Below, one piece after another: positions 29,289 through 46,066 of a stretch of DNA of 64,000 nt (its first letter is position 1; each line of letters begins with the position of its first letter). The notes beneath the pieces were generated by a model that saw only the letters and a list, made by a program, of their open reading frames with translations, did no database searches and was not told where the DNA came from. The translations under genes and the position numbers were made by a program. This stretch comes from Escherichia phage BEU50. Where the stretch lies: sequence record OM632671.1; one strand, written 5' to 3'.

Positions 29289-29804
29289 ATGAATATTTGT
29301 TTAGGCAGTACAATTCCTAAGGGTTACGTAATTGATGTCACTACTTGGGAAAATGACGGCGACAACTATAAAACCAAAACATTATTTGGTGTGGAAGAGC
29401 ATGAGCTCCAACAGTTTAAATATCTCTTGAAGAAATTTAAGAGTCGTCATTCCAGCACTAAAGCTGAACGTTACTGTGGTAATACACCATTCAGTGATTG
29501 CTCGCTTTTAATCTATGAATACTTGGTTGAAGGGCTGTTCTCAGACCAGCTTTATCCAGAATTCATTAAAAAGGTCTTTGATATTGAAGTCGACCTTGGT
29601 AATAAATCTGAAGAAGACGAATCGCGTGTATTCGACCTGTTCCATGAGAATGGATATTTGGTATCAGAAGGTCTCATTGATATTCTTGGTCATGCTTCTG
29701 AATATTATGATTATGATTTCTTGCGTGTAGTTGAATGTGTTGAATTTGCTTATATTGAAGAAGAAATCGTTTTGCCAACTGTTAAAATGATTGATTTGCT
29801 TTAA
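29289..29804 (+). CDS. hypothetical acidic protein
   Basis: 171 aa ORF. Confidence 0.55.
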   Translation: MNICLGSTIPKGYVIDVTTWENDGDNYKTKTLFGVEEHELQQFKYLLKKFKSRHSSTKAERYCGNTPFSDCSLLIYEYLVEGLFSDQLYPEFIKKVFDIEVDLGNKSEEDESRVFDLFHENGYLVSEGLIDILGHASEYYDYDFLRVVECVEFAYIEEEIVLPTVKMIDLL

Positions 29805-41806: not shown

Positions 41807-42109
41807 ATGGCCTTAAGAGCGATAGCTGTCATGGCGATGCTGGGGTTTTTTGCAGCAACAACTCCTATCGTTGGTACTGCATATGTTGACCCATATTTTG
41901 ATAACTTTATGGAATCAGGGATTAAAAACGTATATACTTTGTTTGAAATTCAAAATGTCGAGAATTCTGAAAAATTCTATAAGTATATGGCAAAGCATTA
42001 CAAAAATAGCCCCTGTGATGATGCATTTGAATGTCACGAACAAGGCATAAAAACTGCCAGACAATTTGCCGAGTTCATGAAAATAAAATTAGAGCCTACA
42101 TCTATCTAA
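41807..42109 (+). CDS. rI: lysis inhibition regulator RI (antiholin)
   Basis: Signal-anchor plus VDPYFDNFMESGIKNVYTLFE...SPCDDAFEC... matches recalled T4 RI. Confidence 0.85.
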   Translation: MALRAIAVMAMLGFFAATTPIVGTAYVDPYFDNFMESGIKNVYTLFEIQNVENSEKFYKYMAKHYKNSPCDDAFECHEQGIKTARQFAEFMKIKLEPTSI

Positions 42110-43409: not shown

Positions 43410-43886
43410 ATGATTATCAATGAAAACTCTTGGCACTTTAAAATTTATGCCGCGTTCAATAGTACATGGAATCGTCCGAAAACGTTATGTGCTTATTTTT
43501 GGAAAACGTTTCTCCCGGTATTGGCTGCTTCAATTATTGGATTTGCGATTTTAGCAGCAGTCACAATCATTGGCCAGGAAATTTTAACTAAATTCTTTGT
43601 TTTTAGCAGTCTATGGACATTAGTTCTGGCTTCAATTGGTGTAGGCATTTTAATGGTAGCAGTCATGGCTTTTATTGCTACCGGGTTGGTAATTGGTCCG
43701 TCTTGGTTGTTAGACAAATATAACGACAGAAAATATTATAAAGAAATTGAGCTCATTGCACAAAACCAAGAACGAATTAAAAATGGACTTGAGCCTATTG
43801 AACGTAAGAAATCGATTATCGTTGAATTTTTAAAAGCTCGTAAAGCTAAAGTGTGTCCTACTCTTGAATACAAGCCAGGCAAATGA
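43410..43886 (+). CDS. hypothetical membrane protein
   Basis: Hydrophobic TM segments; 158 aa. Confidence 0.55.
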   Translation: MIINENSWHFKIYAAFNSTWNRPKTLCAYFWKTFLPVLAASIIGFAILAAVTIIGQEILTKFFVFSSLWTLVLASIGVGILMVAVMAFIATGLVIGPSWLLDKYNDRKYYKEIELIAQNQERIKNGLEPIERKKSIIVEFLKARKAKVCPTLEYKPGK

Positions 43887-44665
43887 ATTATATCAAATGT
43901 TATGATGCAATAATTCAACGAGGAAAACTTAGAGGCAGTGATAAGTCTGAGTTGAATTATTATACTGAATCCCATCACATAATCCCTTCATGTATTGGAG
44001 GGAGTGATGACCCGAGTAATAAAGTTTTATTGACTGCCAGGGAACATTTTATCGCTCATTGGTTATTATCAAAAATTCACCCAAACTCTGAAGGATTGAT
44101 TTACGCTTACTGGGCGTTCTATAATTTAGGCGAAGATGCTTTAGGACGAAATCTTAAATTAACCTCAAGAGGCTATAAAGACGTAAGGGAAAAGTTTTCA
44201 GAAATTCACTCTAATAGAATGAAAGATATATGGGAATCACAAGAATATCGTGATAAGCGTTCAGCGACCATGAGCCTCCCTGAGATAAAGGCTAAAATGT
44301 CAGATTCTCAAATAGAGGCACAGAATAGACCTGAAGTTAAAGCAAAAATATCTACTGCTATCAAAGAGGCCTTTAAGAGAGATGATGTTAAAGAACGGCA
44401 TTCAAGAGCTGTTAAAAAGGCCCTAGATAATCCAGAAACTAAAAAGAGACAGTCTGAAGCGTCTAAAGCTAGACAACGAACTGGTAAACACTGGGAAGAT
44501 TATGATATGCTTTACGAACTTTGGATTAAATTGAATCGACCTAAGCGTGGGGCTTTCGGAACCCATATTAGTAAAATGGGTTATCCTAAATCAAATTACC
44601 AACGCTTAATATTACAGTTCATTGAAGATTATGAAAGGAAAGTGAATAATGAAAACGATTGTTAA
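43883..44665 (+). mobile_element. free-standing HNH homing endonuclease (Mob-like) with C-terminal repeated DNA-binding motifs
   Basis: HNH core ESHHIIPSCIGGSDDPSNKVLLTAREHFIAHWLL; C-terminus LYELWIKLNRPK...GYP shared with the HEG at 62324. Confidence 0.8.
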
Positions 44666-45635
44666 GGCTTACTTTGGTAGCCACCTTTATGGAACGTCTA
44701 CCCCTGAATCTGACGTTGATTTTAAAGAAATTTATGTCCCTCATGCTCGTGATATCTTGACCGGTAACGTTAAAGAACATATGAGCAAGAACACGAATAA
44801 CACATCTTCTAAGAACACAAAAGACGACGTGGACCATGAGTTATATAGTCTCAAATATTTCTTTAAACTAGCTGCAGATGGTGAAACTGTCGCATTAGAT
44901 ATGCTTCACACTCCACCAAGTCTAGTAGTTAAATCTGATTTGCCTGATGTATGGAAGTATATTCAAGATAACAGGTCTCGTTTCTATACCACTAACATGA
45001 AATCTTATTTAGGGTATGTCCGTAAGCAAGCTTCTAAATACGGTGTCAAGGGTTCTCGACTGGCTGTTCTTCGTCAAGCCCTTAAACGTTCTAATGAATG
45101 GGGACAATACTTTGATAATGGTGCAGTAATTCGTTTATCACATATGAAGAATGTTCTGCCTGTAGGTGAATTTGCTTCATGGGTTGAAACCGAAAACGAG
45201 AAAACAGGTAAGCAAACATTCTATAATCTGTTAGACCGTAAATTCCAAGATACGTTAACCAATAAAGAGTTCAATGCCATCCTGGTTAAACTGGAAGAGA
45301 ACTACGGTGAACGTGCTCGTAAGGCGGAAGCCAACGAAGGTATTGACTGGAAAGCATTGAGTCATGCATGCCGTGGTGGACTTCAACTATTGGAAATTTA
45401 CAAAACCGGCGACCTGGTTTACCCACTTCAGGATGCTCCATTTATTCTCGATGTTAAGCTTGGTAAACATACGTTTAAAACTGTACAAGAATTCCTAGAA
45501 GATATCGTTGACCAAGTTGAACAAGCATCAGAACAAGCCGCTAAGAACGGTATGCAACAAAAAGTAGATATGAGTTTCTGGGATGACTTCCTTGAACAAG
45601 TCTATCTCGAAAATCATAATTCTTACTATAAATAA
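44649..45635 (+). CDS. predicted Pol-beta-superfamily nucleotidyltransferase-fold protein
   Basis: N-terminal motif YFGSHLYGTSTPESDVDF (GS...SDxD); 328 aa; start overlaps the HEG end. Confidence 0.55.
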   Translation: MKTIVKAYFGSHLYGTSTPESDVDFKEIYVPHARDILTGNVKEHMSKNTNNTSSKNTKDDVDHELYSLKYFFKLAADGETVALDMLHTPPSLVVKSDLPDVWKYIQDNRSRFYTTNMKSYLGYVRKQASKYGVKGSRLAVLRQALKRSNEWGQYFDNGAVIRLSHMKNVLPVGEFASWVETENEKTGKQTFYNLLDRKFQDTLTNKEFNAILVKLEENYGERARKAEANEGIDWKALSHACRGGLQLLEIYKTGDLVYPLQDAPFILDVKLGKHTFKTVQEFLEDIVDQVEQASEQAAKNGMQQKVDMSFWDDFLEQVYLENHNSYYK

Positions 45636-45666
45636 GTAGATAAATAACCATTAACTTGAGGTAAAT

Positions 45667-45948
45667 ATGAAAAAATTAGTAATTGGTTTATTCGCAGTAA
45701 TGATGGCATTCTCTGTTGGTGCTACCACAGGTGCTGCTGGCGGTAGTGCAGGAGCTGGTGGTAACCAGTCTTCTGGGCCTTCCAATGGTTCGGTAAATGC
45801 ATCACATTCTCAGGGTATTGAGAACATTAAATCAAGCTATATTAATAGCACGGCAGGTCAAGCAACTGAAGCATGGTCAAAGGGCCGAGTAGTTACTCGC
45901 TCCGTATTCTGTGATATGCCTAATTATGTTGCTAAGTGCGATAAGTAA
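45667..45948 (+). CDS. small secreted Gly/Ser-rich protein with C-terminal Cys-x8-Cys loop
   Basis: Signal peptide MKKLVIGLFAVMMAFSVGA; AGGSAGAGGNQSSGPSNGS; C-terminal CDMPNYVAKC. Confidence 0.55.
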   Translation: MKKLVIGLFAVMMAFSVGATTGAAGGSAGAGGNQSSGPSNGSVNASHSQGIENIKSSYINSTAGQATEAWSKGRVVTRSVFCDMPNYVAKCDK

Positions 45949-45952
45949 ATGT

Positions 45953-45973
45953 GGGGACCTTCGGGTCCCTTTA
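45953..45973 (+). terminator. rho-independent terminator
   Basis: gggacc-ttcg-ggtccc followed by TTT. Confidence 0.6.
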
Positions 45974-45999
45974 GGGGGTTAAAATATTTTTAAAAAGTA

Positions 46000-46029
46000 G
46001 TGTACATGCTTTTAGGATATGTTATTATA
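46000..46029 (+). promoter_or_regulatory. early promoter (GTGTAC -35, TATTAT -10), PeSL family A variant
   Basis: Downstream 5' UTR aaacgaaatgagtaaattggag resembles the 28420 copy. Confidence 0.5.
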
Positions 46030-46066
46030 GACCTATCGAAACGAAATGAGTAAATTGGAGAATAAA

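Follow-up and report, generated by a model that had tools for sequence, protein, structure and literature searches.

The question raised by this locus is what kind of protein is encoded by the 93-codon reading frame found between the homologues of nrdC.11 and nrdC.10, and whether its Gly-rich, disulfide-looped appearance makes it a relative of the microcins. The window, that is the whole stretch of 64,000 nucleotides that was analysed, is part of a Mosigvirus genome (RB69 group, T4-like), and the 1.6 kb around the gene are 98-99% identical to many Mosigvirus records. The local gene order is tk, rI, y05I/mobD.1, a membrane protein gene, the nrdC.11 nucleotidyltransferase gene, the 93-aa gene and the nrdC.10 AAA ATPase gene. 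Pfam and PHROGs assign the neighbours at 42.8-49.1 kb to a y05I-like protein, a membrane protein, an HNH endonuclease, an RlaP nucleotidyltransferase, an AAA ATPase and proteins of unknown function. The reading frame starts with ATG, and the Shine-Dalgarno motif read from the sequence ends 5 nt before it. The full product consists of three parts, MKKLVIGLFAVMMAFSVGA, TTGAAGGSAGAGGNQSSGP and SNGSVNASHSQGIENIKSSYINSTAGQATEAWSKGRVVTRSVFCDMPNYVAKCDK, which are treated separately below. The positions of the features are collected in the table.

Features of the 93-aa gene and its flanks; positions are those of the window.
Feature	Position	Strand	Basis
CDS, 93-aa pre-protein, phrog_2243 family	45667..45948	+	ORF, family HMM, conservation
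Signal peptide (predicted), residues 1-19	45667..45723	+	hydropathy; V17 and A19 invariant; sister-clade motifs
Gly/Ser/Ala-rich segment of variable length, residues 20-38	45724..45780	+	indels, dN/dS, pLDDT, tolerated inversion
Conserved C-terminal module, residues 39-93	45781..45945	+	most columns invariant; dN/dS; identity
Cys82-Cys91 loop, C-D-M-P-N-Y-V-A-K-C	45910..45939	+	both Cys invariant
TATAAATA, T4 late-promoter consensus octamer	45627..45634	+	overlaps nrdC.11 stop, 33 nt before ATG
Shine-Dalgarno GAGG	45658..45661	+	read from sequence; invariant in 4 carriers
GC-rich hairpin, UUCG tetraloop	45953..45970	+	7-bp stem in MFE structure; begins 5 nt past stop
Sigma-70 / T4 early-type promoter-like site, TGTACA-16-TATTAT, extended TG	46001..46028	+	kept in RB69 and G2469

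The reading frame is confirmed as a real gene and not a chance ORF, since the protein is conserved in about 100 genomes, the residues V17, A19, C82 and C91 are invariant and dN/dS is low in the C-terminal part. A 44-aa antisense ORF (45651-45785, minus strand, beginning with MEGPEDWLPPAPALPPAAPVV) overlaps the part coding for the signal peptide and the Gly-rich segment; it results from the high GC content of the Gly/Ala codons and is no separate gene. Upstream, an HNH/homing-endonuclease gene of 260 codons (43883-44665, plus strand; phrog_655, E = 7e-56) is flanked by the membrane-protein gene and nrdC.11, and its 3' end overlaps the nrdC.11 start. The HNH gene is missing from the same position in 348Ecol098PP, G2469 and RB69, and is therefore a free-standing homing endonuclease insertion specific to the source phage lineage.

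The protein matches the phrog_2243 HMM with E = 4e-38 and 130.6 bits (all 93 residues aligned to positions 2-87 of an 87-position profile), a family annotated as function unknown. With tblastn the gene was found in 102 phage records. The carriers are Mosigvirus together with a few members of Gaprivervirus (VR7, VR25, DCP80) and Dhakavirus (04086, ESCO10). The gene is missing from the Mosigviruses RB69, PhAPEC2 and LF82-2 and from T4, and close relatives, RB69 among them, can do without it. When 1.84 billion representative proteins were searched with a profile HMM, nothing beyond the family itself was obtained, and no relative was found in 185,579 bacterial and archaeal species genomes, one for each species. 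IMG/VR contained two loci, both from T-even phages, and a divergent metagenomic member of the family has the same position downstream of nrdC.11. Between genera the identity is 66-73% for the small protein, 70% for nrdC.11 and 82% for nrdC.10. The small gene thus diverges in step with its neighbours, which suggests that it has long resided at the locus and was lost in particular lineages, and that it was not captured recently. Literature searches on this gene, on the genes beside it and on secreted proteins of Mosigvirus yielded no characterisation. About 100 genome records already list the gene as "hypothetical protein", and its cluster phrog_2243 exists as well.

The N-terminus consists of MKK, followed by LVIGLFAVMMAF and then by S-V-G-A/T, the slash marking the predicted cleavage point. 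Nine-residue Kyte-Doolittle means reach up to 2.96 in this leader, the hydrophobic core of which is 12-16 residues long. Residues 17-19 form a V-x-A motif, with V17 and A19 invariant in the 18-sequence alignment. The basic n-region, the hydrophobic h-region of 7-15 residues and the small residues at -3 and -1 that characterize substrates of Sec and signal peptidase I are accordingly recognisable in the leader. Neither a lipobox cysteine nor a twin-arginine motif is found in it, there being no cysteine before residue 82 and no RR. In the other clades (VR7, 04086, ESCO10) the leaders end in V-L-A/T and V-M-A/T, on the plan MK(LKL)K, hydrophobic core, V-L-A or V-M-A and then T-E-G. The K-rich n-region, the hydrophobic core and V-x-A/T are therefore features retained across three genera despite sequence divergence. 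The signal-peptide call is based on this n/h/c anatomy and on the conserved -3/-1 rule, and the product is very probably a secreted periplasmic protein. The preliminary description had proposed a leader of Sec type and not of double-glycine type, and both points are borne out, the former by MKK, the hydrophobic core and the invariant V-x-A, and the latter by the G-A end, which becomes LA or MA in the sister clades.

The segment that follows (TTGAAGGSAGAGGNQSSGP, residues 20-38) contains 7 Gly, 4 Ala and 3 Ser, so that the Gly/Ser/Ala-rich composition seen at the outset accounts for 14 of its 19 residues. Its DNA has 61% GC, compared with 37.5% in the window, and no tandem repeats were found in it. 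Within Mosigvirus the indels in this tail amount to 0-7 residues, and in the sister clade the tail is Gly/Ser/Pro-rich. The dN/dS ratio of the segment (0.25-0.88, Nei-Gojobori) is the highest in the protein. AlphaFold2 gives a pLDDT below 50 over residues 18-36, and the segment is presumably disordered. One variant of the family has GDWLPPAPA in place of GAGGNQSSG, in the equivalent of about 45735-45775. This variant (P0016) is obtained, apart from two mismatches, when about 30-37 bp of the Gly-rich DNA are inverted in frame; the change may be a genuine micro-inversion or may be an artefact of assembly. Because the Gly-rich part is the least conserved, is prone to indels and tolerates inversion, it is taken as a spacer and not as the active module.

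The remaining 55 residues follow the pattern SNGS..ASHSQGIENIKSSY.N.T.G.A.EAW.KGRVVT.SVFC.MP.YV..C.K and are 76% identical between genera, most of residues 39-93 being invariant in the 18-sequence alignment. The module has a dN/dS ratio (Nei-Gojobori) of 0.14-0.21 when Mosigvirus is compared with the other genera and of 0.02 for VR7 against 04086; dS between clades is about 0.8-1.4 and thus near-saturated. The gene is under purifying selection in this module, which on the pattern of conservation is likely to be the functional part of the protein. The C-terminal C-x8-C of the preliminary description stands: C82 and C91 are the only two cysteines, both are invariant in the same alignment, and C91 is located two residues from the C-terminus. 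In the VR7/04086/ESCO10 clade the loop is C-x7-C (C-H-M-P-K-Y-V-G-C), so that C-x-M-P-x-Y-V is retained while the loop length shifts from 8 to 7 residues. A C82-C91 disulfide, presumed to be made by DsbA, is proposed because of the periplasmic location. AlphaFold2 gave a mean pLDDT of 51 with the 18-sequence family alignment and of 55 with the mature sequence alone; the models are unreliable and contain no confident fold.

The gene has the structure of a cassette. In the carriers the gene and a 31-nt leader are found exactly between the nrdC.11 stop codon and the hairpin. In the non-carriers RB69, PhAPEC2, LF82-2 and T4 the nrdC.11 stop (TATAAATGA) directly abuts the GC-rich UUCG hairpin, which is thus kept directly 3' of nrdC.11 in phages without the gene. 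The flanking genes of RB69, PhAPEC2 and LF82-2 are 98% identical to those of the window, and in T4 the spacer between nrdC.11 and nrdC.10 is 114 bp and does not contain the gene. The nrdC.11 stop is TAA in four of four carriers, giving TATAAATA, and TGA in all four of the non-carriers, giving TATAAATG. The octamer TATAAATA is possibly a late promoter as well as the left junction of the cassette. The late octamer has four plus-strand matches in the window and ten in total against 8.5 expected, which is not above chance, and for this reason the late-promoter function is kept as a working hypothesis.

The predicted UUCG hairpin is an mRNA-stabilising or terminator element; in VR7 and 04086 the homologous hairpins have U-runs after them and are scored as intrinsic terminators. 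The early-type promoter-like site downstream of it, with the counterpart TTTACA-16-TATTAT in 04086, would serve the nrdC.10 homologue and mark the right-hand limit of the cassette. In Gaprivervirus and Dhakavirus the gene stands apart from nrdC.11, and a canonical hairpin-plus-U-run terminator is situated directly 3' of it. The MotA-box pattern TGCTTYA-N11-13-TANNNT is found exactly once per locus in four of four non-Mosigvirus copies (loci of 6-8 kb), about 40 nt 5' of the small gene in Gaprivervirus and Dhakavirus. The same pattern has 11 matches in the window, compared with 1.76 expected from shuffling, and most of them are on the plus (early-gene) strand. With a promoter and a terminator of its own and a clean presence or absence, the gene is therefore an autonomous, moron-like unit, and expression before late times can be inferred for at least two of the three genera.

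Some further observations were made on the same signals. Plus-strand examples of the MotA-box pattern in the window are found at 29797, 40601, 44137, 44508, 53171 and 60814, two of them inside the homing endonuclease gene. The hairpin and the early promoter element (45953-46045 in the window) are kept even without the 93-aa gene. G2469 and RB69 have an extra gene of 219 bp (RB69ORF102c-like; L008 2558-2776, L011 1612-1830) between the hairpin/promoter element and nrdC.10. This gene is absent from the window, and therefore constitutes a second presence/absence cassette in the same short interval.

Taken together, the gene would be an accessory cassette, self-contained and located in the hyperplastic tk-nrdC region of T-even-type coliphages. 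The product would be exported by Sec, and a cut by signal peptidase I after V17-G18-A19 would free a soluble periplasmic protein with a predicted size of about 74 aa and 7.4 kDa and a predicted pI of about 8.7. The mature protein would then comprise a disordered, length-tolerant Gly/Ser/Ala tail at its N-terminus and the conserved 55-aa module, ending in a C-x-M-P-x-Y-V-x(1-2)-C loop presumably closed by a DsbA disulfide. It would be made from early or middle infection, in Gaprivervirus and Dhakavirus from the MotA-box middle promoter and in Mosigvirus by read-through from nrdC.11, perhaps with a contribution from a late promoter. In the infected cell's periplasm the module and the loop may let the protein bind, stoichiometrically, an envelope component of phage or host origin, with the outcome that the cell is shielded from secondary infection or lysis from without, or that the timing of lysis is tuned. 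The exclusion or lysis role is proposed because the T4 proteins Spackle (Sp) and RI, both small periplasmic proteins with cleaved signals, bind stoichiometrically; RI binds the holin T. A soluble, disulfide-looped periplasmic binder acting in superinfection exclusion or lysis control is the best explanation by this analogy, given somewhat less than an even chance as a whole. The role in exclusion or lysis, taken alone, is tentative, and the chances lean against it. As a kind of function, a periplasmic exclusion or envelope-directed factor, as first suggested for this product, appears the most plausible.

Among the other explanations, three concern the identity of the protein itself. The N-terminal segment could stay uncleaved as an inner-membrane type II signal anchor or a SAR-like domain, with the Gly-rich segment as a flexible tether by which the C-terminal module is shown at the membrane (e.g. 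to the holin, Imm or the injection site). The layout of hydrophobic segment, flexible linker and small domain would suit this, as would an h-region rich in Gly, Ala and Ser like that of SAR domains, and rI is only 3.5 kb from the gene. An anchor is nevertheless quite unlikely: the hydrophobic run has just about 16 residues, which fits the h-region of a signal peptide better than a transmembrane helix, and the V at -3 and the A at -1 are invariant across the clades, a sign that a signal peptidase site has been maintained. There is also the precedent of T4 RI, which has a cleavable signal peptide and was once thought to be anchored, and which was shown to be cleaved and not SAR-anchored (PMC8385771). 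Because of the short hydrophobic run, the invariant -3/-1 residues and the RI precedent, cleavage by signal peptidase I is predicted most probably after A19.

A microcin-like, Gly-rich and disulfide-looped toxin, released for example at lysis and killing neighbouring bacteria, would have about the right mature size. At 74 aa and 7.4 kDa with two cysteines, the protein is within the microcin range (about 5-10 kDa, disulfide optional), a property which does not discriminate. The Gly-rich stretch, the C-terminal Cys loop, which is like the C-x10-C of MccV, and the leader, which happens to end in G-A, also recall the class IIa microcins (MccV/colicin V, MccL), which are below 10 kDa and Gly-rich and have a disulfide-closed loop at the C-terminal end. 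Class II microcins have a double-glycine leader of 15-18 aa (GG/GA), PCAT and MFP exporters and an adjacent immunity gene (PMC10233263). The leader here has instead a contiguous hydrophobic core of Sec type and no conserved GG/GA, with LA or MA in the sister clades; class IIa microcins differ further in that their GG leader is cut by PCAT and in their plasmid or bacterial chromosomal location, next to immunity and export genes. Pfam and PHROGs gave no PCAT, MFP, C39 peptidase, ABC transporter or HlyD within about 5 kb, and no small membrane ORF is adjacent to or overlaps the gene as a possible immunity gene. The membrane protein gene closest to it (43410-43886) occurs in RB69 as well, a phage without the 93-aa gene. 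BLASTP against colicin V gave E = 8.5 (the colicin V sequence being 100% identical to annotated cvaC on plasmids), so that the likeness of "EAW...GR...C...PN...C" to the C-terminus of colicin V/MccL was rejected as homology. The NCBIfam bacteriocin-type match scores 13 bits where the cut-off is 40, constraint is weakest in the Gly-rich part, and a virulent phage has little to gain from killing potential hosts. A microcin is thus very improbable, and the resemblance to Gly-rich class II microcins that had been noted is superficial.

Capture of the host periplasmic protein YbgS (PF13985) is the most improbable of these three and is practically refuted. The Pfam match covers residues 1-69 (E = 0.0049, 17.5 bits), and E. 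coli YbgS combines a Sec signal peptide with a low-complexity region rich in G, A, S and N and with two cysteines close to each other; it too is periplasmic and of unknown function. The match is nevertheless below the gathering cut-off of 27 bits, it was not obtained with five other members of the family (the VR7, 04086 and ESCO10 homologues and shorter Mosigvirus variants) or with the mature sequence, and BLASTP against E. coli YbgS gave E = 0.21. YbgS moreover has no counterpart of the conserved C-terminal module. Since the match is not reproduced and no bacterial relative exists among the 185,579 species genomes or the 1.84 billion representative proteins, it is attributed to the signal peptide and composition. 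Several other candidates were rejected. The NCBIfam models JUQZ_fam_ocin (13 bits, cut-off 40) and NprX (11 bits, cut-off 33) match just the signal peptide and the Gly run. Matches to AFF4_CHD and to an ABC transporter in Pfam and PDB sequences have E >= 0.008, involve low-complexity or short stretches and are biologically irrelevant. Likenesses to a TonB box, a TolB box and a protease-inhibitor loop, judged by inspection, consist of the tripeptide VVT and the loop Met and are too weak to count as more than speculation. A PADLOC scan of the protein gave nothing.

The remaining readings concern the target. The protein could instead inhibit, from the periplasm, an envelope enzyme or a receptor of the host, with the disulfide-constrained Met-Pro-x-Tyr-Val loop as the reactive or binding element. 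Its target would then be a periplasmic protease (e.g. DegP), a phage receptor of the outer membrane or a defence system acting at the envelope, and not a component of an infecting phage. Periplasmic inhibitors, Ivy and ecotin for instance, make use of small loops closed by a disulfide, and the loop is the most distinctive conserved feature of the protein, kept through a change in length; the carriers, furthermore, already have Sp. This reading is pure analogy, however, and no similarity to inhibitor families was found in Pfam, NCBIfam, PADLOC or PDB sequences. It is considered unlikely, and it overlaps in spirit with the periplasmic binder preferred here. A wider reading, rather doubtful, is that the protein is the founder of an unrecognised family of T-even periplasmic effectors whose loop would bind a specific envelope target, the candidates being the holin/antiholin machinery, a component of an incoming phage, a receptor and a protease of the host. 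If true, superinfection exclusion or lysis control would have a further, new mechanism operating next to Imm, Sp and RI, encoded by a presence/absence cassette traded among Mosigvirus, Gaprivervirus and Dhakavirus.

The T-even phages are a model system in which most small genes of the hyperplastic regions have no known function, and the few known secreted T-even proteins (Imm, Sp, RI) govern competition between phages and the timing of lysis. The 93-aa gene is found in some Mosigviruses that are therapeutic candidates and is cleanly absent from near-identical relatives, e.g. RB69. Pairs of carrier and non-carrier (ST0-like versus RB69) are thus convenient natural knockouts. Their comparison could reveal a new mechanism of exclusion or lysis control, and could explain differences in cross-exclusion in phage cocktails. 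The present result is a refinement of the annotation, by which the comparison with microcins is to be dropped: the gene is a lineage-restricted ORFan and one more small Sec-exported accessory protein of T-even phages.

Among the known systems, T4 Sp (gp61.3) has 97 aa, a cleaved signal of 22 aa, a periplasmic location and one disulfide, and inhibits the gp5 tail lysozyme (PMC7650644). Both genes are T-even accessory genes with a precursor of about 95 aa, the signal being 22 aa in Sp and about 19 in the 93-aa protein. Both products would have about 75 aa when mature, a periplasmic location and two cysteines with one disulfide (putative in the 93-aa protein), and expression before late times is a feature of Sp that is inferred here. 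Sp differs in having no Gly-rich tail, and similarity to it was not detected (hhalign probability 1.7%). A true homologue of Sp, with 66% identity to the T4 protein, is encoded elsewhere in carriers, e.g. ST0, and the 93-aa protein is therefore no replacement for Sp. As a separate observation, NYVAKCDK (residues 86-93 of the product) resembles NYVLYCDK (T4 Sp residues 76-83; L014 2762-3052, minus strand). The Cys of this NYVxxCDK is a disulfide partner in both, taking the putative disulfide of the 93-aa protein as given, and the VR7 clade has the weaker KYVGCKK; the resemblance is probably due to chance.

T4 RI, too, is small and periplasmic and has a signal peptide that can be cleaved, and is encoded in the same tk-nrdC early region, with rI 3.5 kb upstream of the gene in the window (41807-42109). 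RI is near-universal in T-even phages whereas the 93-aa gene is sporadic, and no similarity was found to the RI of the window itself (hhalign probability 1.1%). As regards genome organisation, the likeness is to the moron/PeSL cassettes of the hyperplastic regions of T4-type phages, a comparison made with these cassettes as generally described. There too a single small gene has its own promoter, a stem-loop and the early promoter of the next gene, and is present or absent between near-identical flanks.
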